A stretch of DNA of 64,000 nucleotides from Polyangiales bacterium (GTDB lineage: Bacteria > Myxococcota_A > Polyangia > Polyangiales > Ga0077539), in the NCBI GenBank assembly GCA_044229975.1, contig JBGARZ010000024.1, positions 86,356 through 150,355 on the forward strand, in the 5' to 3' direction. The translations under genes were made by a program, and so were the position numbers. Each line of letters starts with the position of its first letter. The stretch's first letter is position 1. This document shows, in pieces, positions 25,361 to 45,732 of this stretch. The notes under the pieces were generated by a model that worked only from the letters and a program-made list of their open reading frames with translations, did not search any database and was not told the DNA's origin.

Positions 25361-26500
25361 TCACAACAGCGCGTGCAGATCCTCGCGCGTCGTCACCGGA
25401 ATCCCCCGCTTCCCGAACCCCTCCTTCAGCCGCTCGAAGGTCGCCAGCTCCCACTCCTCCGTCGCCGCTTCGGGCCGCCCGACGCTCTCGTACAGCGTCG
25501 TCGAACGCCCCTTCTCGTACATCGGCGCGACGCGCACCGCGTGCACCCACGGCGCGACCTTCTCCACCAGCTTGTCCGGGTCCATCGGCAGCATCGGCTG
25601 CACCACCACGAAGGTCCGCAGCCCCGCTTCGTGCATCGCCTTGAGCGCCTCCAGCCGCGCCTCGATGCCCTCCGTCCTCGGCTCGAACACCGCCCGCACC
25701 CCATCGTCGTCCGTCGGAACGCTCATCCCCACCAGCGCCCGCGGAAACTCCCGCAGCCGCTCCAGGTCATCGAGCACCGACGTCGACCTCGTCAAAATCA
25801 TCGGAACAAACCCCGTCCCCTTCATCGCGTCGAGGCACCCGCGCGTCACGCGGTAGCGCCGCTCGATGGGCTGGTACGGGTCCGTCACGATGGGGCTCAT
25901 CCGCACCACGCCCGGCGGCCGCTTCGCCACTTCCTTCGCGAGCACCGTCGGCAGGTCGGTCTTCACGTCGACCCAGCGCCCCCACGGCAGCACCGGCTCG
26001 CCCTCCAGCGCGCGGCTCGCATCGGCCCGATGCATCGCGTAGCAGTACGGGCACGCCAGGAGGCACCCGACATACGGGTTCAGGTAATAGACACCCGGCA
26101 CCTCCGGCACCAGCGCGTGGTCGGCCGTCAGCTCGCGCACCCGCACCCGCTGCGCCTCTTCCGCCGTCACCGCCACCGGCGCGGGCAGCTCGTGCTCGTG
26201 CGCCTTCACCACGCGCACCACCTCGTCGATCACCGCGCGCTCGTCGGCGTCGAGGTCGCGCCGCAGCCGATCGACCACCGAGTAGTAGACGTTGAGCCGC
26301 GCCGTGCGGGCGTAACAACCCCGCGATGCATCGAGCGTGTCGAGCTCCACCACGAGCCGCCCCTTCGGCCCGCGGAAGCCCAGCGCGAGCCCTTGCTCCA
26401 CTTCCCTCGAAGTGAGCCGCCACCCCGCTGGCAGCACGAGCTCGGTCAGCCAGCGAGCGACCGTCGCGGAGAGCGTCGAGTGCCCCGCGCGAACGATCAT
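25361..26500 (-). CDS. Radical SAM protein, SPL/Rv2578c-like family, with N-terminal extension
   Basis: LNPYVGCLLACPYCYA, TDPYQPIE, ILTRS. ATG overlaps the upstream stop (TGATG). Confidence 0.8.
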   Translation of the reverse strand: MIVRAGHSTLSATVARWLTELVLPAGWRLTSREVEQGLALGFRGPKGRLVVELDTLDASRGCYARTARLNVYYSVVDRLRRDLDADERAVIDEVVRVVKAHEHELPAPVAVTAEEAQRVRVRELTADHALVPEVPGVYYLNPYVGCLLACPYCYAMHRADASRALEGEPVLPWGRWVDVKTDLPTVLAKEVAKRPPGVVRMSPIVTDPYQPIERRYRVTRGCLDAMKGTGFVPMILTRSTSVLDDLERLREFPRALVGMSVPTDDDGVRAVFEPRTEGIEARLEALKAMHEAGLRTFVVVQPMLPMDPDKLVEKVAPWVHAVRVAPMYEKGRSTTLYESVGRPEAATEEWELATFERLKEGFGKRGIPVTTREDLHALL

Positions 26501-28851
26501 CAGCCGAGCACGTTGAGCCGACGACGCGAGTCGACCTCCACCAGGGGCCGGTCGAGGTCTTCCGGGTGCACGAGCCACGGCGGCTCGGGCACATCATCGA
26601 GCTCGTAGAACCCACCGCAGAACACCGCGTGCGGACACGTCGCGCAGACGGGCTTCTTCACGCGGCGCGCGGCGAGGTAGTCGCCGAGGTTCACGTCCTC
26701 GTTGTTCACGAAGATCATGTGCCGCGAGAGCTTCAGCAGGTCGCCCATCATGAAGCGCTCGTACCCGGGCATGAAGCAGAACGGCAGGTTGATCACCTGG
26801 AACTTCATCCGATCGCCCCAGCGATCCATCACCGCCATCGCCGCGTTGGCGGCCGTCTGGGTGTCGGGCGAGATCCACTTCGTCGCGCGCCCGAAGGGCG
26901 TCAGGAACTGGATGTTGAGCCACCGCAGCCCAAGGTCCCACGCGAGCTGGGTGACCGCTTCGAGGTGCGCGGTGTTGCTCTTGGTGAGGGTGATGTTCAT
27001 GCCGAGCTCGACGCCCGGCGGCGCGTGCTTCACGCAGTAGCGGATCCCCTGCACGGTCTGCTCGAAGGCTTCGGCGACACCGACCTGCTGGGCGTGCGAC
27101 TGGGCGTCGTGGCCGTGCACGCTGAAGAGCAGCGTGGTGAGCCCCGAGCGCACGAGCGAGCGCGCGAACTTCTCGTAGACGCAGAGGCGCCCGTTGGTGG
27201 TGACGTTGACGCGCTCGTAGCCGATGCTGCGCGAGTACTGCACCAGCGGGATGAGCTCGGGGTTGAGCGTCGGCTCGCCGCCGTCGAAGTCGACCATGGT
27301 GACGCCCTGCGCGCGGTACCGGTCGAGGTGCTCGCGCTGCCGCGTCGGGTGCCCATCGACCTGCGTGCGCGTGCCCACCGCGCAGAACGTGCAGCGGTTG
27401 TTGCACACGTAGGTGACGTTCATGATGACCTTCTGCGGGCCTTCCACGGCGCGCATGCGCTCCTCGAAGGTCCAGCGGAAGCGGGCGAGCTCCTCGGGCG
27501 TGACGCTCATCCCCGGCTGGCTCGGCGTCATCTGGAAGCGCGGCCCCCAGTCGTCCACCACGGGCAGCGATCGCCCGCGCGCGAGGTCGGTGCCCGGCAG
27601 CGGCGTCGCGTACTGCACCGCGGGCCAGGCGCCGTGGTCTTCGTAGAGTTCCATCGCGAAGCGCAGGGTCTCGTTGATCTCCTCGGCGCTCTCCCCGGGC
27701 AGCCCGATGATGTAGTGGACCATCAACGGCACGCCCGCGGCCTTGGCGCTCTGCGCGGCGCGCACGATGGCCTTGAGGTCGAGCCGCTTCTTCACCACCT
27801 CGGTGACGACGCGCTGCGAGCCGCTCTCGGCGCTCACGCTCACGGTGTTCACGAGGCCGCGCATGCGCGCGAAGTGCTCGGGTTCGAGGTAGTCGGCGCG
27901 CATCCCGTTGGGAACGTCGAAGCGCACCCCGAGCGCCGTCACGCCATCGAGAAAGCCATCCCAGTGCCGCTCGTTGACGTTGATGAGCTCGTCGAGCACC
28001 TCCAGCCGCGACGCCCGGTGGGTCTTCACCATCGTGTCGAGGTAGGCCCGCAACCGCGCCGCCGAGTAGCGCCGCTGGGTCTTCGGCTCACCCAGCTCGC
28101 GCCCCGGGTTGGAGCTGCAATGAACGCACGTAAACGGGCACCCGCGCGAGGTCACCATCGGCAGCGTTCGGCCGTCGATGGGGAAGGCCCACGCGCCGCG
28201 CCCGAGGTCGCCCACCATGCTGGCGCAGAAGCGGTCGTGCGCGTTGAGGTCGACGAGATCCCACGCGGGGAAGGGGAGGGCGTCGAGCGACGACGGGCTC
28301 TCTCCGCGGTGCGCTCCGCGGATGGACTCACCGCGACCGAGCGCCGCGAGCAGCGCGGGCACGGTGACCTCAGCCTCGTACTTCACCCACGCGTCGGCCT
28401 CGGGGTAGCTCGCGAGCACGGCCGCGCCGTCGGCTTCGACGTAGTGCTGGCCCGACTGGTAGGCGTCCGCGAGCACCAGCGCCGCCGTCGGCAGCATCGC
28501 GCGCAGCCCCGTGAGCAGGGCACCGAGCACCTCGTCGCGACCCGGTGGCCGATGAAACGGCGTGTACGCCACGACCACCGCCGCGGGCTTCTCTCCCGCG
28601 GCGATGGCGGCCCGCACCGTCGCGAGCAGCGTCTCCACGGGGACGCCCAGCAGGGCCCGGTCGTCCGCGCGCCAGCGCAGCGCGGCGCCCGGCGTGGCGA
28701 AGGCGTCGACGAGGGTGACGGGGTGCCCGAGCTCGCGCAGCACGGCCGCAAGCTGCACGGCGCCGAGGTCGCTGAAGTACGGGTAGTCGATGAAGTCCCG
28801 CGCCACGCTCACGGGCGGATGCAGCACCAGCGTGGCGACCGGGTGGCTCAT
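26500..28851 (-). CDS. Cobalamin-binding radical SAM protein fused to a second radical SAM domain
   Basis: B12-binding-type N-terminus (LGAVQLAAVLRELGHPVTLVDA), TSRGCPFTCVHC, AESGSQRV, IIGLPGE and TPLPGT. Then CNNRCTFC, GGEPT, TTNG, NLPFC and CATCPHAVFCGG. Confidence 0.85.
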   Translation of the reverse strand: MSHPVATLVLHPPVSVARDFIDYPYFSDLGAVQLAAVLRELGHPVTLVDAFATPGAALRWRADDRALLGVPVETLLATVRAAIAAGEKPAAVVVAYTPFHRPPGRDEVLGALLTGLRAMLPTAALVLADAYQSGQHYVEADGAAVLASYPEADAWVKYEAEVTVPALLAALGRGESIRGAHRGESPSSLDALPFPAWDLVDLNAHDRFCASMVGDLGRGAWAFPIDGRTLPMVTSRGCPFTCVHCSSNPGRELGEPKTQRRYSAARLRAYLDTMVKTHRASRLEVLDELINVNERHWDGFLDGVTALGVRFDVPNGMRADYLEPEHFARMRGLVNTVSVSAESGSQRVVTEVVKKRLDLKAIVRAAQSAKAAGVPLMVHYIIGLPGESAEEINETLRFAMELYEDHGAWPAVQYATPLPGTDLARGRSLPVVDDWGPRFQMTPSQPGMSVTPEELARFRWTFEERMRAVEGPQKVIMNVTYVCNNRCTFCAVGTRTQVDGHPTRQREHLDRYRAQGVTMVDFDGGEPTLNPELIPLVQYSRSIGYERVNVTTNGRLCVYEKFARSLVRSGLTTLLFSVHGHDAQSHAQQVGVAEAFEQTVQGIRYCVKHAPPGVELGMNITLTKSNTAHLEAVTQLAWDLGLRWLNIQFLTPFGRATKWISPDTQTAANAAMAVMDRWGDRMKFQVINLPFCFMPGYERFMMGDLLKLSRHMIFVNNEDVNLGDYLAARRVKKPVCATCPHAVFCGGFYELDDVPEPPWLVHPEDLDRPLVEVDSRRRLNVLG

Positions 28852-28981: not shown

Positions 28982-29242
28982 ATGTTCGGCATGGGCGCAT
29001 CGGAACTGATGATCATCCTGGTGATCATCCTGCTGTTGTTCGGGGCCTCGAAGCTCCCTGAGCTCGGACGCAGCCTCGGCTCGGGGCTCAGCAACTTCAA
29101 GAAGGGGCTGAAGGACGGCGACGAGGGCCCGACCCTGCCCGCACCGCCCGCCCGTGTCGCGCGCGTCGAAGAGCCGCCCAAGGCAGCAGTGCCGGCCGAG
29201 ACCCCGCCGGCGACGCCGACCTCCAACACCAGTGATTCCTGA
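28982..29242 (+). CDS. tatA: Twin-arginine translocase TatA/TatE subunit
   Basis: MFGMGASELMIILVIILLLFGASKLPELGRSLGSGLSNFKKGL is the canonical TatA signature. Confidence 0.95.
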   Translation: MFGMGASELMIILVIILLLFGASKLPELGRSLGSGLSNFKKGLKDGDEGPTLPAPPARVARVEEPPKAAVPAETPPATPTSNTSDS

Positions 29243-31947: not shown

Positions 31948-32952
31948 ATGCGGCCGACGACCCCGACGATGCTCCCACCCCGCGCCACGCTCTCCCTGCT
32001 CACCGACTGCGACAACCGCTGCGTGTTCTGCGCGCCCGACGGGCTCCCCGCGGCCGCCCCGCGCGAGCTCGACGCCGTCGTCGCCGACCTCGACGCCCTC
32101 CGTGCACGGCACACCGCGATCACCTTCACGGGCGGCGAACCCACGCTCCACCCCGCGCTGCCCGCCATCGTCGCCGCGGCGCGCGCTCGCGGCTTCACCC
32201 ACGTCGGGCTCCAGTCCAACGGCCGTCGCCTGCGCGAGCACCACTACGCCAACGCCTTGCGCGACGCGGGCCTCACCGACGTCCACCTCTCGCTGCACGG
32301 CCTCGGATCAACCATCCACGACCACCACACGGGCGTCGAAGGCAGCTTCGCCGAAGCCTTCGACGGGCTCGCCGCCGCCCGCCACGCGGGCCTCACCATC
32401 GTCGTGACCACGGTGCTCACGCGCTCCAACGCGCGCTCCCTCACCGCGCTCGCCCCGTGGCTCGCCGCGCAGTCCGTCGCCGCGTGGTCCGTCGCCGTGC
32501 CCCGCACCGCGGGCCGACTCTTCGCCAGCTTCGACCGGGTGTTTCCGCGGCTGGCGATGGCGATGCCGCACGCGCTGCACGCGCTCTCGGCGGCGCAGCA
32601 GAAGGGCGTCGTCCCCTTCCTGCGCGGAGCGCCGCTGTGCCTGCTCGGCCCCTTCGCGGCGCGCAGCCTCCCTGTCGCGACTGGAGCCTTCGCCCCGCAA
32701 CCCTGCGGCACCTGCCCGGCCCGCGCGTGGTGCCCCGGCGTCGACGCCCGCTACCTCAAGCGCTTCGGCGGCGACGAGCTCTCCGCAGCGCGCGCCCCCA
32801 CCTCTCCCGCAAAGCCCTTCACGGCTCGCGAAGAGTCGCTCGCGGTGATGTTCGTGGGGGAGGGGCCCGGCGGTCCGGAGCCGGCCGGGGTAGAGTCGGC
32901 GCCGACGGGCGCTACGCGGGTGGCGTTGCCGATCGTGCGCGAGGGCGCGTAG
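31948..32952 (+). CDS. Radical SAM protein (HxsC-like clade)
   Basis: CDNRCVFC, GGEPT, QSNG, HDHHTGVEGSF, APLC, CGTCPARAWCPG. Confidence 0.85.
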   Translation: MRPTTPTMLPPRATLSLLTDCDNRCVFCAPDGLPAAAPRELDAVVADLDALRARHTAITFTGGEPTLHPALPAIVAAARARGFTHVGLQSNGRRLREHHYANALRDAGLTDVHLSLHGLGSTIHDHHTGVEGSFAEAFDGLAAARHAGLTIVVTTVLTRSNARSLTALAPWLAAQSVAAWSVAVPRTAGRLFASFDRVFPRLAMAMPHALHALSAAQQKGVVPFLRGAPLCLLGPFAARSLPVATGAFAPQPCGTCPARAWCPGVDARYLKRFGGDELSAARAPTSPAKPFTAREESLAVMFVGEGPGGPEPAGVESAPTGATRVALPIVREGA

Positions 32953-32963
32953 ACCGAGGACGC

Positions 32964-34196
32964 ATGGCGAACATCGGGTACATCCAGGTCGTCCGGCACT
33001 GCAATCACTTCTGCGGGTTCTGCTCCAACCCGACGACGCCGTACGTGCACACCTTCGAGACGATGAAGGTGCTCGTCGACGACCTCGTCGACCGCAACTA
33101 CTTCGGGGTGATCCTGACGGGCGGCGAGCCGTCGCTTCATCCCGAGCTGCCGCGCATCGCGCGCTACGCCTCCGACCGCGGGCTGCACGTGCGCATGATC
33201 ACCAACGGGTGGCGCATGGCCGACCCGGCCTTCGCGAAGGAGATGGCCGAGGCGGGGCTGAAGCTCGTGCACGTGTCGGTCTACTCGGTGCGGCCCGACG
33301 TCGAGGAGAAGCTGCGCGGCACGCCCGGCACCGTGGAGCGGGCCTTCGCGGCGATCGAAAACGCCAACCGCTACGGCATCGACGTCAACATCAACTGCGT
33401 CATCAACAAGCTCAACGCCGACCACCTCGACGAAAACATCCGCCACTGGATCACGCACCACCCGTACATCCGGCACTTCGTCTGGAACAACCTCGACCCC
33501 TCCATGGGTCGCGCCGAGGTCAACCAGGCCGAGTACACCCCGCGGCTCGCCGACTTCGAGGTGTCGCTCCACCGCGCGCTGAAGCTCCTCCACCAGAGCG
33601 GCCGCACCTTCCGCGTGGAGAAGGTCCCGCTCTGCTACATGGCGGAGTTTGCGTGGGCGAGCACCGAGACCCGCAAGATCGTGAAGGGCGAGGAGCGCAT
33701 CGTTCACTTCCTCGACGCCAAGCAGACGGTCCGGCAGACCGACTGGGAGCACATCTACTCGGACGGCTGCTCGGTCTGCTCGCTACGCACCATCTGCGGG
33801 GGTCTCTTCGACCGCGGCAACGCCTACGACCCCGGCGAGCTGTACCCGGTGTTCATCGACCGCGACGCCGTCGTCGAGAAGATCATCCACGACCCGCGCG
33901 ACCCCAGCTACGAGTTCCGCTCCATGGACGCGTGGCGGGCGGACTTCGAGCGCCGCGTCGCCGAGGCCCGCGCCGCTGGCAATCGCCGCCCATTGCCGAT
34001 GCACGGCGACCAGCCGCCCGAGCACATGACCCCGCCCAACGCCCCCGCCGTGGGGCAGATCACCGAACAGGGGCTCCGACTCTTCGAATCCAAACGCAAT
34101 TCCGAAGGAAAGAAGGCCGCTCAGATCGGTATCTCCCTCGAACGGATGGAAGTGCAGATCCCGGTCAATCCCCCATTGACCAAGACCGACCCATGA
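32964..34196 (+). CDS. Radical SAM protein (HxsC-like clade)
   Basis: CNHFCGFCSNP, GGEPS, ITNG, VPLC, CSVCSLRTICGG. GAGGA RBS upstream of ATG 32964. Confidence 0.9.
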   Translation: MANIGYIQVVRHCNHFCGFCSNPTTPYVHTFETMKVLVDDLVDRNYFGVILTGGEPSLHPELPRIARYASDRGLHVRMITNGWRMADPAFAKEMAEAGLKLVHVSVYSVRPDVEEKLRGTPGTVERAFAAIENANRYGIDVNINCVINKLNADHLDENIRHWITHHPYIRHFVWNNLDPSMGRAEVNQAEYTPRLADFEVSLHRALKLLHQSGRTFRVEKVPLCYMAEFAWASTETRKIVKGEERIVHFLDAKQTVRQTDWEHIYSDGCSVCSLRTICGGLFDRGNAYDPGELYPVFIDRDAVVEKIIHDPRDPSYEFRSMDAWRADFERRVAEARAAGNRRPLPMHGDQPPEHMTPPNAPAVGQITEQGLRLFESKRNSEGKKAAQIGISLERMEVQIPVNPPLTKTDP

Positions 34197-34519: not shown

Positions 34520-35254
34520 ATGTTGAAGTGGAACCGGCGCCAGTTCCTGAGTGGAGTGTTGACCGCTGCCAGCGCGGGTGCGGCGACGTCTGCCCAGGCT
34601 CTGCCCGTCTCCTCGTCGCTGCTCTCCGGAGCACCCGGCACCTCCCCACTCCCTGCACCCGTCTCGCCCACGGGTCACGAAGCTCCTGCCACCGCAACAA
34701 GCTGTGCGAGCAACCACGTCGCGCACGACCTCCAGCAGATGCTCCCCGAGGGGCAGCGCTTCGGTCGCTGGCGCGTGGTGTCGGTGCTCCCGGTCAAGCT
34801 CGGCGCCGTGCCCGTGGTGCTGGAGTCTCGCCGCGGCGAGCGCTTCCAGGTCGACGTCCTGCGACGCGACCGCAGCACGCGCGCCCGTCGCGGCCTCGCT
34901 GAGACGCGCGAGTACTCGCTGTTCCTGCTCAACCGCGGCTTGGGTGATACCCCGACCCAGGAAGACCACGGCCTGGCGGTGCTCTGGCTCGCGGCCCTGC
35001 TCCGCCCGCGCGAGCGCACCGCGGGCACCGTCGCGCTGCTCACCCAGCGCGAGCGCACCCAGCGCTTCCCGCGCGGCAAGTTCAACGCCCTCACCTCCGC
35101 CGTCGCCGAAGAGCAGACGCGCTTCGAGGCGCCCGCCTCCGAGGCGAGCTGGCAGTTCGCCGAAGGGGCCGCGACGCCTCCGCGCATCGAGGCCGAAGAG
35201 CCCGCTCCCGCGCTCCCCGGCTCGCCCGAGTACGACGCCCTCCTCCTCGGCTGA
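34520..35254 (+). CDS. Hypothetical protein with twin-arginine (Tat) signal peptide
   Basis: NRRQFL followed by a hydrophobic stretch and an AQA cleavage site. Confidence 0.7.
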   Translation: MLKWNRRQFLSGVLTAASAGAATSAQALPVSSSLLSGAPGTSPLPAPVSPTGHEAPATATSCASNHVAHDLQQMLPEGQRFGRWRVVSVLPVKLGAVPVVLESRRGERFQVDVLRRDRSTRARRGLAETREYSLFLLNRGLGDTPTQEDHGLAVLWLAALLRPRERTAGTVALLTQRERTQRFPRGKFNALTSAVAEEQTRFEAPASEASWQFAEGAATPPRIEAEEPAPALPGSPEYDALLLG

Positions 35255-35405
35255 CCGGCGCTCCGCCGCAGCCCCACTCCCGTACGCAACCGAGCCCACG
35301 CCGAGGCGTCAGCCCGACGCGCATCCGCGGTCGATCAGTCACCTCTACGGCGCGCTGTCGACGTGGTCGGACGCGCGCCACGCTAACGCGTCGGCGTGGT
35401 CGCCT

Positions 35406-37283
35406 TCACTCGGCGTCGGCGAGCACCGGCTGCATCAGCTCGTAGCCGTGCGCGCGGATGTAGTTGATGTGCATGCCGTCGCAGCGCGACGCGTGGACGC
35501 ACGGCTTGCAGCGGAGCGACTTCGCCTTGTAGCGGTCGACGATGTACCGCTGGATGTAGCGGAAGATCTCGAGCTGCCCGTCGGGGGTCATCATCGACGC
35601 GTCGAGGGTCTTCACCGGCTCGCGCGGCGTACGCCCGATCACGCACGCCGGAACCCCCTCCACCGGGACATCACCCGCAAAGCGCTCGAAGAACGCCCGC
35701 AGGTCGACGTCGTACGCCTGGGCCTCGCTCATGCGCTCGTAGGTCGGCTGGAAGAGCGCCAGCCGTGACGGCACCGGCCCCGCTGCGGCGAGCGAGAGCA
35801 GCCACGGCTCGTTGGCCTTCGTGAGCGCGACGGCCACCTCGAAGTCACCCGGCATCGCCAGCAGCGCCTCGGCCTGCGCAGCCTTCGACGCGATCGCCCG
35901 CGTCACCCGCCACGGGACGTCCGAGCGTCCAGACGTCCAGACGTCTAGACCACTGAAGTCCGCGAGCTCGAGCTCCACCTCGGTGAGCGTCGGGTGCAGC
36001 GCGATCTCGGCGAGCGCGGCCGTCACGTCCGGCGCCACCACCCAGAGCTTGCGCGCCTGCGCCTCGACGGCGAGCGCCCCGGGCGCCACCGTCGCGATCG
36101 CGGTCGACGCCTTGGCGCTCTGCCCCAGCACCGGCAGCCGGAGCTTGGCCCGCGACGAGTCCACGGTGACGTCCTGGCCCTGCGCCTCGACCACCGCGTC
36201 GCCCTCCGGAAGCGCCGTGAGGCCGCCTTCCGCGAGCTGCGCCTCGATGGCCCGCGCCCGCTTGCTGCTGGCCGGATCGCCACCCCAGATGGGCCCCTGC
36301 TTCTTCTCCCAGGCGACGTCGACGCGGAGCCGCGCGAAGTCGCGCTGGATCACGTTGTCGCGCACGCCGTAGAGGGTGTCGCAGACGTTCTGGAGGTAGC
36401 AGAGCTTGCAGCGCGAGGGCTCGCGGCAGTCGAGGTCGACGCCCTCGGTGAGCAGCCGGTGGAACTCCTCCTTCCGCCCCTTGGCCTCGTCGTTGAGCTT
36501 GTACGGGTCCTGGATGAGCGACTCGTAGCCTTCGAGGTGCTGCACCGGGAAGCGGTTGAGCCAGATGTGCACGTCGGGCCGCTTGGAGAACGCGAAGGCT
36601 TCGAGCAGGTACGGGCGCATCTCCTCGAGGTCGTAGAAGAGGATGTCCTTCCCTTCCTTGAACGCGTTGCCGAAGGGGATCACGTGCAGCAGGTCGTACT
36701 CGCGCACGCCCATCGCGATGAACTTCTCAAGGATGGTCTTGAGGTGCTTCACGTTGCCACGGTTGATCACCACGTCGATGTTCACGATGGGACGGCCGTC
36801 TTCGAGCGCGTACTGGAGCCCCTGCACCTCCTGCTCGAACGCGCCCTTCGCGCCCACGAGCGCGTCGTGGATGCGCGCGTTGGGGCCGTGGATGGAGAAC
36901 GTGATCTCGTCGAGACCCGCGTCGAGGCAGCGCTGCAAGAAGGCCTTGTAGGAGAACGCGCGGCCGTTGGTGACGGTCTGGATCTTCCGGTACTTCGCGG
37001 CCTTCCCGAGGCGGATGAAGTCCACGTAGTTGGGGTGCATCGTGGGCTCGCCGCCGGAGAGGATGAGCCGCTGCGCGCCCTTCTTCGCCCCGTCGAGGAT
37101 CTGCTGCTTCACCTCGTCGCGGTCACGCATCTGCCCGTCGTGCGTGAGCGTGTCGAGGCAGAAGACGCAGTGGTTGTTGCAGTCGAAGGTGAGGCGCACC
37201 CAGTTGCGCTTCTCGTGCGCGGCGTCTTCGTGTTCGAGCAGCTTCTCGTCGAGGCCCGCGTCTGGGTTCTGCACCGTCAACAT
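35406..37283 (-). CDS. Radical SAM protein with degenerate C-terminal second module
   Basis: CNNHCVFC, GGEPT, VTNG and CKLCYLQNVC. The C-terminus repeats VPAC and CKPCVHASRCDG. Confidence 0.9.
   Translation of the reverse strand: MLTVQNPDAGLDEKLLEHEDAAHEKRNWVRLTFDCNNHCVFCLDTLTHDGQMRDRDEVKQQILDGAKKGAQRLILSGGEPTMHPNYVDFIRLGKAAKYRKIQTVTNGRAFSYKAFLQRCLDAGLDEITFSIHGPNARIHDALVGAKGAFEQEVQGLQYALEDGRPIVNIDVVINRGNVKHLKTILEKFIAMGVREYDLLHVIPFGNAFKEGKDILFYDLEEMRPYLLEAFAFSKRPDVHIWLNRFPVQHLEGYESLIQDPYKLNDEAKGRKEEFHRLLTEGVDLDCREPSRCKLCYLQNVCDTLYGVRDNVIQRDFARLRVDVAWEKKQGPIWGGDPASSKRARAIEAQLAEGGLTALPEGDAVVEAQGQDVTVDSSRAKLRLPVLGQSAKASTAIATVAPGALAVEAQARKLWVVAPDVTAALAEIALHPTLTEVELELADFSGLDVWTSGRSDVPWRVTRAIASKAAQAEALLAMPGDFEVAVALTKANEPWLLSLAAAGPVPSRLALFQPTYERMSEAQAYDVDLRAFFERFAGDVPVEGVPACVIGRTPREPVKTLDASMMTPDGQLEIFRYIQRYIVDRYKAKSLRCKPCVHASRCDGMHINYIRAHGYELMQPVLADAE
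35913..35952. repeat. Five tandem 8-bp repeats (CCAGACGT-like) inside a CDS
   Basis: CGGGACGT CCGAGCGT CCAGACGT CCAGACGT CTAGACCA. Confidence 0.65.
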
Positions 37284-37366
37284 ACCGTTCCGTAGCTCCT
37301 GCGGGCGTTAGAGAGGGGATTGCAACACAAGCCGCGATCAGAGGCCATGCACGTTCCGGTGCGCGC

Positions 37367-38290
37367 TCAGGCCACGGGCCTGAACTCGTCCTCGCCGTGC
37401 ACCGCGAGGTAGTCGCGCCGCAATCCGTTGCAGCGTGATCGATGACGGCATGGCGCGCAGCCCGGTAAAAAGTACCCACCCTCGATGGGCGAGTCGGCCA
37501 GGTCGAAGGCGTGCCCGCCAGGGTTCACCACGCGCATGCCGAAGCCCGCCGCGTCGAAGAGCGCGCCGTGCAGCGCCTCCGGCAGCACGCACGCCGGCGT
37601 GTGCAGCGACACCAGCTCTGCATCGGCGTTGGCCGCGACGGCCGCCACCAGCGCCGGGACGACGTCGCTCATCCGCGGAACCTCCGCCCGCACCGCAAGG
37701 TCATCGCGCGCCTGATCGATCGCCGAGAGCAGCCACACGCGGAAGTGCCGCGCGCCCCAGCTCAGGCCCAGCGACACCATCGCGGGCAGCTCGGCGGCGT
37801 TGCTCGCGGTGATGAGCAGGTCGCCCTCCAGGGTGATGCCCGCCTCGCGAACGGCCTCAGCGCCGCGCGCCATCAGGTCGAAGCAGCCGTCGGTGCGAGC
37901 GATGCGGTCGTGCGTGGCGGCCGAGGCGCCCTTCATCGAGAGCGCGACCTCGGTGATGCCGGCGTCGGCGCAGCGCCGCGCATAGCCGGGATAGGCGAGC
38001 ATCATCCCGTTGGTCTGCAGCTTCACCCGCGCGTAGCCGAGGCGACGGCCCATCGCGGCGATGCGGAAGATGTCCTTGCGAAGCGTGGGTTCACCGCCGC
38101 CCAACCAGAGACAGTCGGCGCCGTCGGCGCGCCCTTGTTGGAGCGCGCGAACGACCTCCGCATCGGTCATCGCAGGACCATCGTCCTGGACGGCGAAGCA
38201 GCCGATACAGCGGTTGTTGCAGCGATAGTCGGGGGTGAGTTCGACCCAGTGGAGTCGACGCAGACGGTGGCCTTCAGGCCGCGCGATCAC
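37367..38290 (-). CDS. Radical SAM protein (HxsC-like), translationally coupled to the precursor
   Basis: [36 protein letters not shown] overlaps the precursor TGA. Confidence 0.9.
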
Positions 38291-39063
38291 CAGCTCCCGT
38301 GCGAGCCGTGCGACCCGTGCGACCCGTGCGAGCCGTGGCTGCCGTGCGAGCCGTGCGAGCCGTGCGACCCGTGCGAGCCGTGGCTGCCGTGCGAACCGTG
38401 CGAGCCGTGTGAACCGTGCGAACCGTGCGAGCCGTGCGAACCGTGCGAGCCGTGGCTGCCGTGCGAACCGTGCGAGCCGTGCGAGCCGTGCGACCCGTGG
38501 CTGCCGTGCGAACCGTGCGAGCCGTGCGAACCGTGCGAGCCGTGCGAACCGTGCGAGCCGTGCGAACCGTGCGAGCCGTGGCTGCCGTGCGAACCGTGGC
38601 TGCCGTGCGAGCCGTGCGAGCCGTGGCTGCCGTGCGAACCGTGCGAGCCGTGCGACCCGTGCGAACCGTGCGAGCCGTGCGAGCCGTGCGAGCCGTGTGA
38701 CCCGTGCGAGCCGTGCGAGCCGTGTGACCCGTGCGAGCCGTGTGACCCGTGGCTGCCGTGCGAGCCGTGCGAGCCGTGTGACCCGTGCGAGCCGTGCGAG
38801 CCGTGCGAGCCGTGGCTGCCGTGCGAGCCGTGCGACCCGTGCGAGCCGTGCGACCCGTGCGAACAGTGCTGGGCGCCGCGCTGGTCATCATCCGGCTCGC
38901 CCATCGGGAGCTTCGGACGGTTGGCCGCCTCTTCGCCAGCACGATCGGCCAGCTCACGCTCCTGGGTGGAGAGTGTGTCCGCAGCCGAGCGCTTGAACGA
39001 CGGGAGCTCGTCGTCGCTACCGCTGTCGTCTGCGTCGTCCAGATGGTCGTCGGCGCCTGTCAT
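38287..39063 (-). CDS. hxsA: His-Xaa-Ser repeat precursor protein (HxsA-like): 65-aa acidic leader + HCS + (HGS)63 + W
   Basis: 258 aa = 65 + 64x3 + 1. Lies directly downstream of hxsB with a GAGG RBS. Synonymous codon variation keeps HGS invariant in this frame only. Confidence 0.9.
38293..38868 (-). repeat. 64 x 9-bp coding tandem repeat (CAC-GGN-TCG/AGC/TCA)
   Basis: Seen directly as the gccgtgcga-type array on the + strand. Confidence 0.97.
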
Positions 39064-39153
39064 GATGGCCTCAGCGGTTCGCTAGGGACGGGGGGTACGG
39101 CCGGCACAACCCGGACGTACCGTTTCGAGACTAAGTGAAATCCCAACAAAACT

Positions 39154-40647
39154 CTACACCGGGTCTTGCACGAAATGGTCCCGGGAACGGTTGATGGTCC
39201 AGCGACGGAACACCTGCATGGTCTCAGGGTCCCCCTCGCGGATCTTCTCGAACAGGTAATCCATGATGCCCTTGTGCACCGCGCTCACGGTGCTCTCGCG
39301 CATGCGCCCGGAGATGGACCCCTGGGTCTTGTACGTGTGCACCCCGTCGACCCCGCAGTACGGGTTGTAGGCGCAGTTCACGCAGTCGGGCCGCCCGTTG
39401 AGGTTGGACCCCAGCACCAACGCGCGGATGGTCGGGTGGGCCATCATCGTGTCGTAGGTGAGCTCGCCCACCTTCCCGAGCAGGAAGGTGTCGTCGCCGG
39501 TCTCGTGCATCATCCGGGCTTCGTCGCCCGCGAAAACAAGCCCGTCGTAGTTGTACGCGATGGCGCTGATGCCCGCGCCGCTGGGGCTGCGGATGTCGAG
39601 GAAGTTGGGGTCTTCGCCGTTGAGGATCTTCGACATGAAGATCGCCGCGTACCGTTCCAACACCTGCTTGCCCTGCTTGTTGAGCTCGATGATGTAGTCG
39701 GTCGTGTCGCGGTAGAACTGCAGGTACTCCTCGCGGGGGTACTCCACCCGGTGGGCCGTCTTCTCGACGAACCCGAACGGGTCGATGGGCCGCAGGAACA
39801 TCGCCTTGCACCCGAGCGCCTCGTAGGTGTCGACGATCTCGCGGCCGCGGGAGAGCGCCTCGCGCGTCGTCGTGAGCAGCGCCTCGACGTGGTAGAGCGA
39901 CGGGTCGAGACCGCGCTCGATGTAGGCCTGGTTGATGCGCTTGATCCAGTGCACCGCGGCCTTGAAGGCGCTCGACCCGATGAGCTTGCGCTGCTTGTCG
40001 TGCAGGTGCTCCGGGCCGTCGATGCTGGTGCAGATCTGCACCTTGTGGTCGAGCAGGAAGGCCAGCTTCTCCTCGTCCATCAGGGCGAGGTTGGAGACCA
40101 TCGTGAACTCGATGCTCTTGCCGATCTCCTTGGCGCGCCGCTGACCGTACTCGATGGCGTGCTTGACGACCTTGAAGTTCACGAGCGGCTCGCCGCCCTG
40201 GAATTCCACGGTGATGAAGGGCGACGAGCTCCCCAGCGCGAGCTCGACGGACTTCTCCGCGGTCTCGGCGGACATGTCCGTCTCCACGGCCGTCATGTCG
40301 GCGCGCGAGGCGTGGCAGTACACGCAGGTCTCGTTGCACCGCAGGGTCACCACCAGCATGTGCAGGTTGGGCCCGTTATCCAGGAACTTCATCCGCTTCT
40401 TGAGCCGCGCCACCGCCGCCGGGACGTCGAACTCCGCGCGGATGAGATTGGCGGCCTTCAAGCGGTCCCACAGCCCGGTGCCGCGCTCGACGGTTCCCTC
40501 ACCAAACGCCTTGAATTCAGGCGCCGTGAGGATGACCCAGTCGCCCTGGGCGTTGGTCACCACGAACGACCCGCTCGCGATCTCCCGCACCCGGAAGAAC
40601 GCCGGGAACGTCACGCTCGGCTTCTCGATGCCCGCGAGCATGTTCAC
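39154..40647 (-). CDS. hxsB: His-Xaa-Ser system radical SAM maturase HxsB
   Basis: LHMLVVTLRCNETCVYCHAS, EFQGGEPL, SIDGP, D-x-RSP-x-GAG, AYNYDG, DEARM, CVNCAYNPYCG. Lies between hxsD and the HxS-repeat gene. Confidence 0.9.
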   Translation of the reverse strand: MNMLAGIEKPSVTFPAFFRVREIASGSFVVTNAQGDWVILTAPEFKAFGEGTVERGTGLWDRLKAANLIRAEFDVPAAVARLKKRMKFLDNGPNLHMLVVTLRCNETCVYCHASRADMTAVETDMSAETAEKSVELALGSSSPFITVEFQGGEPLVNFKVVKHAIEYGQRRAKEIGKSIEFTMVSNLALMDEEKLAFLLDHKVQICTSIDGPEHLHDKQRKLIGSSAFKAAVHWIKRINQAYIERGLDPSLYHVEALLTTTREALSRGREIVDTYEALGCKAMFLRPIDPFGFVEKTAHRVEYPREEYLQFYRDTTDYIIELNKQGKQVLERYAAIFMSKILNGEDPNFLDIRSPSGAGISAIAYNYDGLVFAGDEARMMHETGDDTFLLGKVGELTYDTMMAHPTIRALVLGSNLNGRPDCVNCAYNPYCGVDGVHTYKTQGSISGRMRESTVSAVHKGIMDYLFEKIREGDPETMQVFRRWTINRSRDHFVQDPV

Positions 40648-40859
40648 GAGATGCCGCCCTTCCGCGTGAGGCCCAGCGCGTAATTCCCAAGCTCCAGCGC
40701 CACCTTGCGCTCACGCTCGGGGCGCTTGGCGCTAATGCGCACCACCCGGTAATCCCCGTCGTCCACCAGTTCGAAGCGCGCGAAACCCTCGAACACCTTC
40801 ACCGCGCCGTCGACCGACGCGGAGGAGTACAGGTCGCGATGAAATCGCCGCTCGATCAC
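40644..40859 (-). CDS. Small HxsD-like protein
   Basis: 71 aa (VIERRFHRDLYSSASVDGAVKVF...ELGNYAL) with GTGA overlaps on both sides. Resembles the upstream HxsD (Y-x4-V...EFANEL). Confidence 0.7.
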   Translation of the reverse strand: MIERRFHRDLYSSASVDGAVKVFEGFARFELVDDGDYRVVRISAKRPERERKVALELGNYALGLTRKGGIS

Positions 40860-41389
40860 GGCTTTGCCTCGGCGCCGCCGCCCTCGACCTTGGCCTCGCT
40901 CGCGGCCTCCGTCGGGGTCTTCTTCTTGTACTTCTCCTCCCACGACATCGCGATGCCGAGCGGATCGTCGAAGGCCTCTTCCGTGAAGTCGAAGCTCGCC
41001 AGCTCGTCGAGCGAAGGCTCTGCCGCGCCCGCCGCCCGCGCCGTCGCGCCGGCCAGCGCCTGCGTGGTCACCGTCTCCAGCAACACACGGTTTTCTTCGA
41101 TGATCTTCTGCCGCCACGCCTGCGTGAGCAGCTCGTTGGCGAACTCACCCGCCAGGCTCCGCAGCGCATCTGCGTCCGTCGCTGCCTTCTTGCTCGTCAG
41201 CGTCACCGCGACGGAGCCGGCCTTCGGGCGATCGAGCAGCACGAAACAACGGTCGATGAAGATGTACGCCGCACCGTAGACCGCCTCCAGGGGGTAGACC
41301 GCCGCGTCCACAGTCAGCGTCACGCTCCCCTCGGCCAGGTCGCCCACCGCGAGATCCTTCGGAAACCCGTCCAACGTCTGTGTGCTCAT
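40856..41389 (-). CDS. hxsD: His-Xaa-Ser system protein HxsD
   Basis: VDAAVYPLEAVYGAAYIFIDRCFVLL...GEFANELL-x4-R pattern; first gene of the hxs operon. Confidence 0.8.
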   Translation of the reverse strand: MSTQTLDGFPKDLAVGDLAEGSVTLTVDAAVYPLEAVYGAAYIFIDRCFVLLDRPKAGSVAVTLTSKKAATDADALRSLAGEFANELLTQAWRQKIIEENRVLLETVTTQALAGATARAAGAAEPSLDELASFDFTEEAFDDPLGIAMSWEEKYKKKTPTEAASEAKVEGGGAEAKP

Positions 41390-41578
41390 TTGCCTGTGAA
41401 AGCCTCTGGTACGGACCTGCGGGCCCGTCGGGCCCCTGCAATGATGGTTCCGAGTTTGCACCCGCGGCGCACCCGCTCGCAAGGAAGCCATTGGGGGACC
41501 GATGGCGCTTTCCGACCCTCGGAGCCGTCGGTCACTCCGCAATCTTAGGCATGCCTCGCAACCGATTGCGGAGTGAGC

Positions 41579-42499
41579 TCACTCCTTGCGCCATCGGACC
41601 CACCACTGGTTGCTCGTCCCGGGCCCGACGTCCCAACGGTCGACCAGCGTGAGCCCGGTCGCAGCCACGGTCGCCACCGCCTCGTCCGCGCCGTCGTTGC
41701 GGTAGTGCTCGAAGCCCGACGGACCACCCTCCGCCCGCGCCGCCTGCCGGCGTGAGCGCACCAGCCCGAAGGCTACGTTGTCCACGGCCAGCAGCGTCCC
41801 GCCGGGGCGCAGCATCCGCGCGAGCGACGAAGCCACGGCCGCGGGGTCGGCGAGGTGGTTCCAGCTACGGAGCACCAGCACGTGGTCGAAGCGCTCGGCC
41901 GGGTCGAGGTCCTCGGCGGTGCCGACTCGCAGCGTCGCCCAGGGCCAGCGCTCGCGCAGCGCAGCGATGTGACCCGCGTCGGGGTCGAGGCCCACGTACG
42001 CGATCGTCCTCGCTGCGGTGAGCGACGCCAGCGTCTCGCCGTACGGTCCCTGGCCGCAGCCCACGTCGAGCACCGCGCCGCGCAACCCCGCGACCATCGC
42101 GCCCACCACCGCATCATCCCGCGAGAACACCTCGTCGCGCGTCGGATCGAACAACCCCGCGCAGCGCGCGAAGGCGTCGCAGCCCGAACACACCGCGCTC
42201 CGCTGGAGCTTCCGCAGGTCGACCGGAAAGTCGTCGGGCGCGGGCTTGTCGGAGACGTCGAGGTACACCTGCCCCTCGCGGTGCTGCACCTCGACGAGCT
42301 GCTCGTCGGTGAAGTCCGAGGTGTCGCTCACAAACACCGCCACGCGGTCGTCGCGGCGCAGGAAGATCGCCCGCCCCCGCGGCCATCGTCCCGGCCCCGC
42401 GCGACGCACCGGACACCCCGCCGGGTCTTCGGACGTGAGCGTCCCCACCCCGCCGCGCAGCGTGTAGTGGAACGAGTTCGATCGCGGTCGCGCGCCCAT
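41579..42499 (-). CDS. Class I SAM-dependent methyltransferase with N-terminal CxxC-x5-C motif
   Basis: VLDVGCGQG, YVGLDP, FDHV...NHL-x-DP...LRPGG and CSGCDAFARCAG. Start uncertain. Confidence 0.8.
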   Translation of the reverse strand: MGARPRSNSFHYTLRGGVGTLTSEDPAGCPVRRAGPGRWPRGRAIFLRRDDRVAVFVSDTSDFTDEQLVEVQHREGQVYLDVSDKPAPDDFPVDLRKLQRSAVCSGCDAFARCAGLFDPTRDEVFSRDDAVVGAMVAGLRGAVLDVGCGQGPYGETLASLTAARTIAYVGLDPDAGHIAALRERWPWATLRVGTAEDLDPAERFDHVLVLRSWNHLADPAAVASSLARMLRPGGTLLAVDNVAFGLVRSRRQAARAEGGPSGFEHYRNDGADEAVATVAATGLTLVDRWDVGPGTSNQWWVRWRKE

Positions 42500-42514: not shown

Positions 42515-43804
42515 ATGCTCCCGACCGCGGTGTCCACGAAGCCAGAATCCTCCGCAGCGCCCGGGTTCAAGGCCCCGCGCGACATCACCATCCCCGACGA
42601 GGGTTCGACCGCCGCGCGCGACGTGCTCTCCGCCGCGATGCGACGCGTCCTCGGCGAGCTGAAGCGCCTGCCGACGAAGCCCATCGCTCCGGGCGACTCG
42701 CCCGACGAGCACCGCGCCTTCGCGCGCACCGTCGACGCGATCTTCGCCGCCCCGGGCCTCGCGGCCAGCCTCGTGCGGCGCCCCACCGTGGGCTCGCTCC
42801 TGCGCTGCCTCCGCAAGCCGTCGACGCCCGAGCGCACCCTCGGTTGGACCCGCGCGCTCCGCGCCCAGCTCGCCTTCGAGCTCGCCTGCCTCGATGCGCT
42901 GCCCGCGCCCGTCGAGCTCGGATCTTTACCCGATCAGGTACTCTCCATCCCCGCCAACCTCGCGCTGCGCTTCGCCGCGGAGGTCACCGGGGCGCGCTTC
43001 GCCAACGGCGCGGTCACCCTCGTCACGGCGCGCGGCGCGGAGACCCACGCCATCGAGTCGTGGACGGGCGACGACGATCGGCCCGACTTCATCACGCGGC
43101 CCTACCACTCAATCACGCCGACGCTGCGCCTCGCGCTGGCCGACAACAACCCGCTGCAGATGTTCGAGGCGCACCCCGACAAGGAGGGCAACGCCATCGA
43201 CCTCGGCGCGAAGTCGGCCGACGACTGGTGCGCCTCGCTGCGCGCCTCGCTCGACCTCATCGCGACGTACCTGCCCACGCTGCGCGGCGAGATCGACCTC
43301 TTCCTGCACCTCGCGGTGCCCGTCGGCTACGACGAGCACAAGCACCTCTCGGCCTCCTACCAGGAGGCCATCGGGACCATCTACCTCACGCTCCACCCCA
43401 ACCTCATGACCATGACCGAGGCGGTCATCCACGAGTTCTCGCACAACAAGCTCAACGCCCTGCTGGAGCTCGACCCGCTGCTCGAAAACGCCTTCTGGCC
43501 GCTCTACGCCTCGCCCGTGCGACCCGACCCGCGGCCGCTGCACGGCGTGATGCTCGCGGTGCACGCGTTTCAGCCCGTCGCGCGGCTCTACGAGCGCATG
43601 GCCGAGGGCGGACACCCCCGCGCGAAGACGGCCGACTTCCAGCGGCGCTTCGCCGCGGTCCGGCGCATCAACCACGCGGGCGCCGACGTGGTGCTCAACA
43701 ACGGGAGGCCCACCGCGATGGGCCGCAACCTCCTCGACGAGATGCGCCGCTGGGACGACCACTACGGCACGCAAGAACTCCCCGAGTCGCTCCCCGACCA
43801 CTGA
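42515..43804 (+). CDS. HExxH-motif protein (alphaKG-HExxH-type peptide-modifying family)
   Basis: SAS-x4-IG-x-IY, EAVIHEFSHNKL, SPVRPDPRPLHGVMLAVHAF. Confidence 0.88.
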   Translation: MLPTAVSTKPESSAAPGFKAPRDITIPDEGSTAARDVLSAAMRRVLGELKRLPTKPIAPGDSPDEHRAFARTVDAIFAAPGLAASLVRRPTVGSLLRCLRKPSTPERTLGWTRALRAQLAFELACLDALPAPVELGSLPDQVLSIPANLALRFAAEVTGARFANGAVTLVTARGAETHAIESWTGDDDRPDFITRPYHSITPTLRLALADNNPLQMFEAHPDKEGNAIDLGAKSADDWCASLRASLDLIATYLPTLRGEIDLFLHLAVPVGYDEHKHLSASYQEAIGTIYLTLHPNLMTMTEAVIHEFSHNKLNALLELDPLLENAFWPLYASPVRPDPRPLHGVMLAVHAFQPVARLYERMAEGGHPRAKTADFQRRFAAVRRINHAGADVVLNNGRPTAMGRNLLDEMRRWDDHYGTQELPESLPDH

Positions 43805-44703: not shown

Positions 44704-45732
44704 TCAACCGGGCGGCCGGTCGAAGGGCACCAGGTCGGCCTCGCCACGCGCGCGAAGGTAGGACTCGCTCACGCCCGAGCACTGCTCTCGCACGACGCAG
44801 CGGCCACAAGCCGACGCGTTCGCAGGCGCGAACAGGCCGGCCGCGACGGTCTTGTAGGTGCGACGGTGCAGCGCCACAGGAACGGCGCACAGCGCGACGC
44901 CCACCAGCGACGAAACGACGGTAGCCGCCGCGCTGGACTGCTCGACCAGCGCGCGGCGAACCAGTGAGTTGGCCGGCTGGAGACGATCAGGATCGGGCAC
45001 CAACGGCTCCGGCGCGAAGGCCGCGAGCGACGACTTCTGCTCGCGCTCGGCGAGCCACGGCAGCAGCCGCGGCAGGTGCTCGACGGCGCGTCGCGTGAGG
45101 ACGGTGTTGATCTCCACGAAGACTCCCGCCGCGCTCAGGTGATCGATCGCGCTCGTCACTTCGCGGAACGCACCCGCTCGCCCCGCCATCGCGTCGTGCG
45201 CGGCGGCGTCCGCGGCCTGTAGCGTGAGGGCCACCGCCTGGAGGCCGGGGATCGCCGCCACGCGGTGGGCGAGGGCGGCGTCTGACAGCGCGGTGTGCGG
45301 GCCGAGCAGGCGCTTTGGCAACAACGGGCGTCGCTCCAGCGCTGCGATGATCGCGTCGTGCGACGGGTGACGGAGCCAGTCGTGGCCGGTGATCGTCACG
45401 GCGACGGGCGGCTGGTGTCGTTCGCAGGCCTTGAGCAACGCGTCGAGCGCGCCGGAGGTCGCGAGGTCGCCCGTCAGCCGCTCGAAGCGGTCGTCGAAGA
45501 GCACGAGCGCGCGGTGCATCGGCTTCTCGCGCTGCACGGGCTGCGCGCAGAACTCGCACGCCTGCGCGCAGCGGGCCTCGAAGTACAGGTGAAGCTCCGT
45601 GGCCGACGATCCCACGAAGGACTCGACGACCATCGTGGCCGCGATCTCCCAGGAGCCATGCACCAGGCGCAGCGCCATGAGACGGCGCATCAGCGCGTGC
45701 TCTCGGATGAACCAGACGGACGGGGAGGACAT
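44704..45732 (-). CDS. Divergent radical SAM protein
   Basis: CAQACEFC, HDAMAGRAGAF, VALC, CGRCVVREQCSG. GGEP is replaced by TGHD. Confidence 0.75.
   Translation of the reverse strand: MSSPSVWFIREHALMRRLMALRLVHGSWEIAATMVVESFVGSSATELHLYFEARCAQACEFCAQPVQREKPMHRALVLFDDRFERLTGDLATSGALDALLKACERHQPPVAVTITGHDWLRHPSHDAIIAALERRPLLPKRLLGPHTALSDAALAHRVAAIPGLQAVALTLQAADAAAHDAMAGRAGAFREVTSAIDHLSAAGVFVEINTVLTRRAVEHLPRLLPWLAEREQKSSLAAFAPEPLVPDPDRLQPANSLVRRALVEQSSAAATVVSSLVGVALCAVPVALHRRTYKTVAAGLFAPANASACGRCVVREQCSGVSESYLRARGEADLVPFDRPPG

Follow-up and report, generated by a model that had tools for sequence, protein, structure and literature searches.

What would a bacterium make from a protein that consists, behind its leader, of 64 consecutive His-Xaa-Ser triplets, and which enzymes might act on such a chain? 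The question is raised by hxsA4, a gene in a 64,000-nucleotide stretch of DNA from a Polyangiales bacterium (GenBank assembly GCA_044229975.1, contig JBGARZ010000024.1, positions 86,356 to 150,355 of the forward strand; hereafter, the window). hxsA4 lies on the minus strand at 38287..39063, with its ATG at 39063 and its TGA at 38287-38289, and encodes a His-Xaa-Ser repeat protein of 258 amino acids. Judged from its sequence, the gene appears to be an extreme member of a long-array lineage within a curated family, and its product, HxsA4, is probably the substrate of the neighbouring HxsB, HxsD, HxsD-like and HxsC-like radical SAM proteins. Family membership, operon layout, the conserved leader motif, first Cys and last Trp, and selection on the His-Gly-Ser (HGS) peptide are the parts of this proposal that stand directly on evidence.

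First, hxsA4 is a real gene. In the frame as given, the plus strand of 38287-39063 contains stops, and its reverse complement is a single open frame of 258 codons. The minus-strand translation and a scripted unit count gave a leader of 65 amino acids (38869..39063), an unbroken run of one HCS and 63 HGS triplets at residues 66-257 (38293..38868, 64 x 9 nucleotides), and a single C-terminal Trp codon (38290..38292) followed by TGA, all on the minus strand; Tandem Repeats Finder placed the array at 38297-38869. The leader, assigned from an alignment of 35 sequences (A1) and a charge count, is acidic, with 19 Asp/Glu versus 7 Lys/Arg and an isoelectric point of 4.05. The first-pass annotation of this DNA had described the same leader, array and terminal Trp at the correct coordinates, leaving the strand unstated. 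The window has a G+C content of 66-74% and long open stretches in all six frames, and an antisense open reading frame (ORF) at 37511-39085 (plus strand, 524 amino acids) spans hxsA4 and is twice its length; third-position G+C over the array is 0.906 for both. The minus strand is the coding strand because its peptide is invariant, its leader matches a curated family, and a GAGG stands 7-10 nucleotides ahead of the ATG and the TGA shares nucleotides with the GTG of the following gene (GTGA). All unit-to-unit DNA differences are silent on this strand, while the plus-strand peptide varies (CEP/CDP/WLP), and of the two overlapping ORFs only that on the minus strand has a product whose leader hits a curated family. 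A gene caller could favour the antisense ORF over hxsA4. In three studies, RNA libraries yielded contigs that align with the leader-coding part at 95-99% identity and extend into hxsB (X12, 38818-39773; X13, 38833-39082; X14, 38941-39091), which hints at transcription of hxsA4 in related strains, with DNA carry-over as another possible source. In the RNA-library runs X12-X15, positions 37400-38207 of the adjoining radical SAM gene were uncovered, a gap to which we attach no weight.

Second, HxsA4 is not an orphan; by sequence, it is a member of the curated NCBIfam family NF038313, "His-Xaa-Ser repeat protein HxsA4" (245.5 bits, cut-off 55). The leader and first repeats align on model positions 1-92 of 93, and in a six-frame genome search with the same model hxsA4 scored 102.4 bits. 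The Hxs families reportedly trace to Haft and Basu in 2011, and our literature search found no publication mentioning HxsA4, HxsC4, HxsA2, HxsA3 or an HGS repeat. The family has in common a leader motif, LPxFx[RK]-5x-LSxxE, and an Ala-Gln directly preceding the array. P21, L31, A64 and C67 occur in at least 90% of the sequences in alignment A1, the first repeat is HCS in 34 of 37 other HxsA4 sequences, and all 37 end in Trp (W in 26, HGQW in 11). The leader motif, the first-repeat Cys and the terminal Trp, all of which the HxsA4 of the window has, are family features derived here from 35-37 members and not from the text of NCBI. The sole Pfam match of HxsA4 is Collagen (PF01391, 104.3 bits versus 27.2), and the matches listed by an exhaustive HMMER search of 1.84 billion representative proteins were all collagen-like, as might be expected if HxsA4 were a bacterial triple-helix protein of Gly-Xaa-Yaa type. 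We judged the Pfam match compositional because Gly stands at each third residue. Collagen-like proteins have a secretion signal, Pro-rich or charged triplets and a trimerisation domain; the repeats of HxsA4 contain no Pro, and its sequence has no signal peptide or trimerisation domain. Moreover, none of the 150 HMMER matches listed has an HxS run (143 have a Gly-x-y run of at least 30, and the search is uninformative on array length), and the leader matches HxsA4, so that a collagen-like protein is hardly credible.

Third, long arrays are a trait of the family to which the window genome belongs, their length differs from species to species, and the 64 repeats here are the maximum observed, by a small margin. 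In a sample of 401 Myxococcota genomes, searched for HxsA4 at the 55-bit cut-off of NF038313, HxsA4 was found in 125 and HxsB in 141. One family carries both in 29 of 29 genomes, and a hand comparison of the 116 genomes listed with a stand-alone HxsA4 above cut-off found HxsB also in 113, all but G153, G127 and G399. Among the 30 best-scoring HxsA4 loci, 28 have 11-19 repeats, one has 37 and the window has 64; the family has the leader motif, the HCS first repeat, the HGS array and the C-terminal Trp in common with the HxsA4 of the window, and its model spans only 93 positions. A search with the array itself revealed arrays of 49 repeats in three genomes of another family and of 32 in one, and two that were cut by contig ends. 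Matches were obtained in 12 of 31 genomes of the window's own family: six complete arrays (60, 53, 42, 32, 32 and 26 repeats), five truncated where their contig ends (at least 48, 38, 36, 20 and 11) and one locus without a run. The loci reached through the coupled radical SAM gene (53, 42 and 32 repeats) match genomes G421, G423 and G425 in leader and count; they probably belong to these very genomes and add no evidence. The array had been treated as unique, a view that the curated family and the recurrence of 26-60 repeats in relatives do not sustain. A word-based search of 5.8 billion proteins gave 111 matches, the longest other HxS run being 29; it missed the proteins of 37-60 repeats found in the genomes, and because these are absent from the collection, it gives no proof of 64 as a record.

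The peptide is far more constant than the DNA that encodes it. In the 576-nucleotide array of the window, eight distinct 9-nucleotide units were counted, with Gly as GGC (39), GGG (12) and GGT (12), Ser as TCG (49), AGC (10) and TCA (5), and Cys as TGT (1). In 440 units from 11 arrays of different genomes, the DNA unit types number 4-18 per array, and the peptide units are HGS throughout, save the first HCS and seven HAS in two arrays. Since the DNA units vary and the peptide stays HGS, these sequences argue strongly for selection on the protein repeat, in agreement with the earlier remark that a conserved protein repeat is carried by a diversified DNA repeat. The accompanying remark that His is always CAC is correct here (64/64) and fails elsewhere, with CAT in 7 of 10 arrays of relatives. 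CAC makes up 92% of the His codons in the other genes of the window, and 64/64 has a P of about 0.006 if codons are independent.

The number 64 is a provisional reading of the assembly. An assembly error, by collapse or expansion within a real gene, is suggested by the behaviour of short reads: in four public metagenome runs on DNA from water and sludge (X1, X2, X3 and X8), the flanks matched at 90-99%, the array was bridged by no contig, and contigs of all four ended at 38318-38322 and 38833-38855, with just 41-75-nucleotide pieces inside the array. Seven arrays in relatives were likewise interrupted by contig ends. Against such an error, the longest exact internal DNA repeat is 60 nucleotides, so that longer reads or k-mers place every unit uniquely, the genome was assembled into merely 39 contigs for 10 Mb, and complete arrays of 60, 53, 49, 42 and 37 repeats are present in independent assemblies. 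We therefore regard a wrong count as rather improbable. Arrays of the hxsA4 type break short-read assemblies and are missed by a big protein collection, which is a practical blind spot.

Fourth, the genes around hxsA4 point to HxsA4 as the substrate of its neighbours. The operon reads hxsD, hxsD-like, hxsB, hxsA4 and two genes for HxsC-like radical SAM proteins, all on the minus strand. hxsD (40856..41389, about 177 amino acids from an ATG at 41389; TIGR03976, 58.6 bits versus 50; alignment A3) and the hxsD-like small gene (40644..40859, 71 amino acids; NF038315, 73.3 bits versus 41) overlap as stop and start at GTGA, as do the latter and hxsB (39154..40647, 497 amino acids), which encodes a radical SAM/SPASM maturase (TIGR03978, 533.2 bits versus 370). 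Downstream, the start of rSAM307 (37367..38290, 307 amino acids; Radical_SAM, 69.7 bits) overlaps the stop of hxsA4 by 4 nucleotides, again as GTGA, and rSAM625 (35406..37283, 625 amino acids, with a long C-terminal extension and syntenic in relatives) follows 83 nucleotides further on. The earlier naming of HxsB, HxsD and a coupled radical SAM enzyme as partners is thus well founded. A scan of 35200-41800 returned no promoter-like and three terminator-like signals versus 2.8 expected. A gene for a SAM-dependent methyltransferase (41579..42499, minus, start at the ATG 42499 or the GTG 42712; Methyltransf_11, 51.8 bits; syntenic) and, divergent to the operon, a gene for an aKG-HExxH-type peptide beta-hydroxylase domain protein (42515..43804, plus; TIGR04267, 89.3 bits versus 40) adjoin it. 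The gene order from the hydroxylase through the methyltransferase, hxsD, hxsB, hxsA4, rSAM307, rSAM625 and a Tat-signal protein to two further radical SAM genes is kept in all three complete close relatives (L066, L068 and L071, the hydroxylase gene included), and the right half of the block is also kept in two contig-truncated relatives. At the 60-repeat locus, hxsB lies upstream (78% identity) and a radical SAM gene downstream. HxsA4 is considered the substrate because NF038313, HxsB, HxsD and the HxsD-like protein all score above cut-off, the genes overlap, their order is kept, and HxsB co-occurs genome-wide.

The cluster-binding motifs of HxsB, Cys104/108/111 and Cys422/425/431, are invariant in 13 sequences, and its profile aligns with PDB 5wgg (5why), a "Radical SAM domain protein", at positions 31-430 of 478 (122.2 bits). 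We take this structure to be CteB, the thioether-forming maturase of the SCIFF peptides; HxsB is like it at the fold level and differs in substrate family, so that it is a guide to leader holding only. The predicted model of HxsD has a predicted local distance difference test score (pLDDT) of 75.9, and Foldseek found no PDB match to it at E 0.001 or better; the protein shows no evident likeness to the PqqD-type leader-binding domains. In HxsD and its homologues (A3), a low-confidence linker leads to a conserved tail at the C-terminus, ...DPLGIAMSWEEKYKKK, which looks like a docking peptide.

Several observations weigh against this proposal. The type-4 Hxs set is incomplete here by model score, with the HxsD-like family present and HxsC4 (NF038332, cut-off 500) not reached: rSAM307 scores 83.4 bits for HxsC4 and 49.6 for HxsC (TIGR03977, cut-off 267.9), and rSAM625 109.9 and 96.5, respectively. 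In the whole genome, HxsC4 gave 25 matches, the best at about 113-115 bits (65-122 for the proteins of the window), and the best HxsC score in the Hxs4 region was 111.6 bits; because none reaches either cut-off, the partner enzymes are called HxsC-like only. Of 19 hxsA4 loci in other genomes, just 7 have hxsB at a distance of 10 kb or less. In three genomes (L036, L038 and L039), a lone hxsA4 of 13-15 repeats has hemL, glyS and a pyruvate phosphate dikinase gene as neighbours and no radical SAM gene anywhere near, and two relatives (L069 and L070) keep the block from rSAM307 to the two radical SAM genes beyond the Tat-signal protein, with hxsB and the HxS run missing upstream. Finally, the exact 258-amino-acid HxsA4 is absent from a collection of 15 billion proteins, as are all seven full-length HxsA4 proteins looked up, that of the window included, and hxsA4 is thus without an independent gene call. 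As a separate observation, an ORF upstream of position 6001 in L069 and 2329 in L070 resembles a serine recombinase by eye.

Despite these points, we hold a processed precursor to be probable and propose the following course of events. The conserved leader would dock the precursor onto the maturases, and HxsB, a SPASM peptide maturase by its likeness to PDB 5wgg, may modify His or Ser in some or all repeats together with the coupled HxsC-like enzymes. The leader might then be removed near the conserved Ala-Gln, by analogy with HxsA of Escherichia coli, and the adjacent hydroxylase and methyltransferase may contribute tailoring. The canonical HXS system of E. coli and Klebsiella is the closest point of reference, and in the available passages of its description (Li et al. 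2026, PMC13128918) the N-terminus of HxsA is cleaved and a single +8 Da change is made on the last repeat (SHRSS), not -2 Da per triplet, both events requiring HxsB, HxsC and HxsD. The likeness comprises the HxsB and HxsD families, an N-terminal part on the repeat protein, which the canonical system cuts off, and two adjacent radical SAM enzymes. The differences are considerable: the order is D, D-like, B, A4, C-like, C-like and not D-B-C-A, 64 HGS repeats stand in place of five basic HxS repeats, HxsC is only distant, and many extra radical SAM, hydroxylase and methyltransferase genes are present. Moreover, 99.7% of HXS systems, searched for with HxsA, were found in Pseudomonadota according to the same passages, and the main text of a study on conserved myxobacterial gene clusters (PMC12766979) does not mention radical SAM, SPASM or ribosomally synthesised and post-translationally modified peptides.

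What the modification might be can be considered in the light of the triceptides, with which the first-pass annotation had compared the array, proposing a cross-link in every triplet. If each HGS triplet were closed into a His-to-Ser ring at a cost of 2 Da, the product would be a rigid ladder of up to 64 rings. The comparison has substance, for triceptides (XyeB, YhhB, HaaB and HtkB) also combine a repeated three-residue motif with an aromatic first position, a SPASM maturase and a leader, and passages of PMC11499958 describe His-C2 to residue-3 C-beta rings made by HaaB on HAA and HtkB on HTK. All three positions are strictly conserved in the 440 units, suggesting that each unit matters, and each of the five E. 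coli repeats is required for function in the passages of PMC13128918. The comparison fails at the enzyme, however, since HxsB lies far below the cut-offs of the triceptide maturase models (XyeB, 58.9 versus 450; YhhB, 52.2 versus 445; AmcB, 50.5 versus 425), and at the product, since the sole Hxs modification measured in those passages, of +8 Da, affects just one repeat. Nor do the motifs characterised in the passages of PMC11499958 include one with Gly second and Ser third. The cross-link idea seems reasonable by analogy and does not fit the sole available data, and a ring in every triplet is accordingly unlikely.

The function of the product may also be sought in the canonical system, which blocks the entry of phage DNA. 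An HxsA4 that acted like the E. coli effector would be a periplasmic anti-phage protein that stops incoming phage DNA, and such a role would agree with the shared system family (HxsB and HxsD) and with the proposal, in the available passages of PMC13128918, that the effector binds DNA through its His-rich repeats. The signal peptide and the peptidoglycan-binding domain that are both needed in E. coli according to these passages are lacking in HxsA4, and Xaa is Gly and not one of the basic residues emphasised there. The joint occurrence of HxsA4 and HxsB in all 29 genomes of one family is unlike a patchy defence island, some hxsA4 copies stand in a housekeeping context, and PADLOC, run on 33 window proteins with a library that predates HXS, yielded only a partial, generic viperin-type radical SAM likeness. 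We consider the anti-phage role not likely. Alternatively, HxsA4 might be an unmodified histidine-rich metal store or buffer, with the neighbouring enzymes acting on another substrate; the 64 His at i, i+3 spacing would suit this role. The curated precursor family, the conserved leader, Cys and Trp, the translationally coupled radical SAM gene and the genome-wide co-occurrence of HxsB all oppose it, and we find it very improbable.

For the modified chain that we prefer, the properties of the core can be estimated: unmodified, it has 18.3 kDa and 64 imidazoles, with a charge of about +5 at pH 7 and +48 at pH 5.5 in a simple pKa model. The product would thus be an 18-kDa chain with little net charge at pH 7 and a strongly positive one below pH 6, a pH-switched polycation and a densely packed set of metal ligands that is predicted to suit the binding of metal ions or of polyanions such as DNA. 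It might act outside the cytoplasm, since the cluster is accompanied by tatA and the gene for a Tat-signal protein. Export of HxsA4 is a guess, and one that finds no backing in its sequence or its Pfam matches, which show neither a signal peptide nor a hydrophobic segment nor a peptidoglycan-binding domain. The Tat-signal protein (34520..35254, plus) has a twin-arginine-like N-terminus (MLKWNRRQFLSG...), no family and synteny in relatives, its best ESM Atlas match (0.75) being a lead only; the TatA/TatE family gene lies at 29009..29242 (plus; TIGR01411, 63.6 bits versus 53.9).

The operon is embedded in an island of about 40 kb (8221-47387) with 14 genes that have a radical SAM domain, two of them with two domains; 13 are above the Pfam threshold, and the one at 44704-45732 is slightly below it (28.7 versus 29.5). 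Most show weak likeness to HxsC or HxsC4, and the contig carries additional HxsC4-like matches upstream of the window. Two HxsC-like radical SAM genes at 31948-32952 and 32964-34196 (plus) are syntenic in 6 and 10 of 32 loci, and a 783-amino-acid fusion of a B12-type and an HxsC-like radical SAM protein, with two Radical_SAM stretches, lies at 26500..28851 (minus; HxsC4, 115.1 bits versus 500; ApyD, 67.5). Other fusions are a 1228-amino-acid protein with ferredoxin, carbamoyltransferase and radical SAM parts (8221-11907) and a radical SAM protein joined to a GFO/IDH/MocA oxidoreductase (15101-18052). A flavin adenine dinucleotide (FAD) enzyme at 23259-25352 (plus) resembles CmlS, a halogenase (276 versus 900), and QhpG (203.9 versus 240), as well as LodB and GoxB; QhpG, LodB and GoxB are Trp-hydroxylating maturases. 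An action of this enzyme on the Cys/Trp pair of HxsA4 is unsupported: it was found in none of eight genomes of the same genus at E 1e-60, hxsA4 carriers included, and its presence in only 1 of 32 neighbourhoods counts against a link. Genes for a helix-turn-helix protein and a DnaB-like helicase (47946-50902, minus) adjoin the island and may mark an integrated element or its edge. Beyond them, an ORF of more than 4145 amino acids (51565-64000, plus) runs past the end of the window, with a disintegrin-like match (654 bits), MopE-type metal-binding repeats and an F5/8 type C domain. The genome of the window has a second, canonical-looking Hxs locus on contig C20 (about 549200-553700; 7234-11728 of L079), whose products are HxsB (576.5 bits), an HxsC-like protein and a protein that contains HRSHRSHSSHSS and has a C-terminal domain.

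Taken together, HxsA4-type systems are widespread in Myxococcota, occurring in about a third of the 401 sampled genomes. Array length would be an evolvable parameter, with 11-19 repeats in most lineages and 26-64 in the family of the window. As a bolder reading, which we hold to be quite doubtful, HxsA4 might be a ribosomally templated, enzyme-stitched polymer in which all 64 units are modified, the Cys and Trp serve as end-caps or as a closing staple, and evolution tunes the length between 11 and 64 units through gain and loss of 9-nucleotide units. If this were true, no longer ribosomal product with iterative modification would be known, and nature would supply one material in a graded series of lengths. 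The long-array lineage is in any case a natural series of 26, 32, 37, 42, 53, 60 and 64 repeats with a perfectly conserved peptide, so that modification per repeat and the role of length are directly accessible to mass spectrometry.

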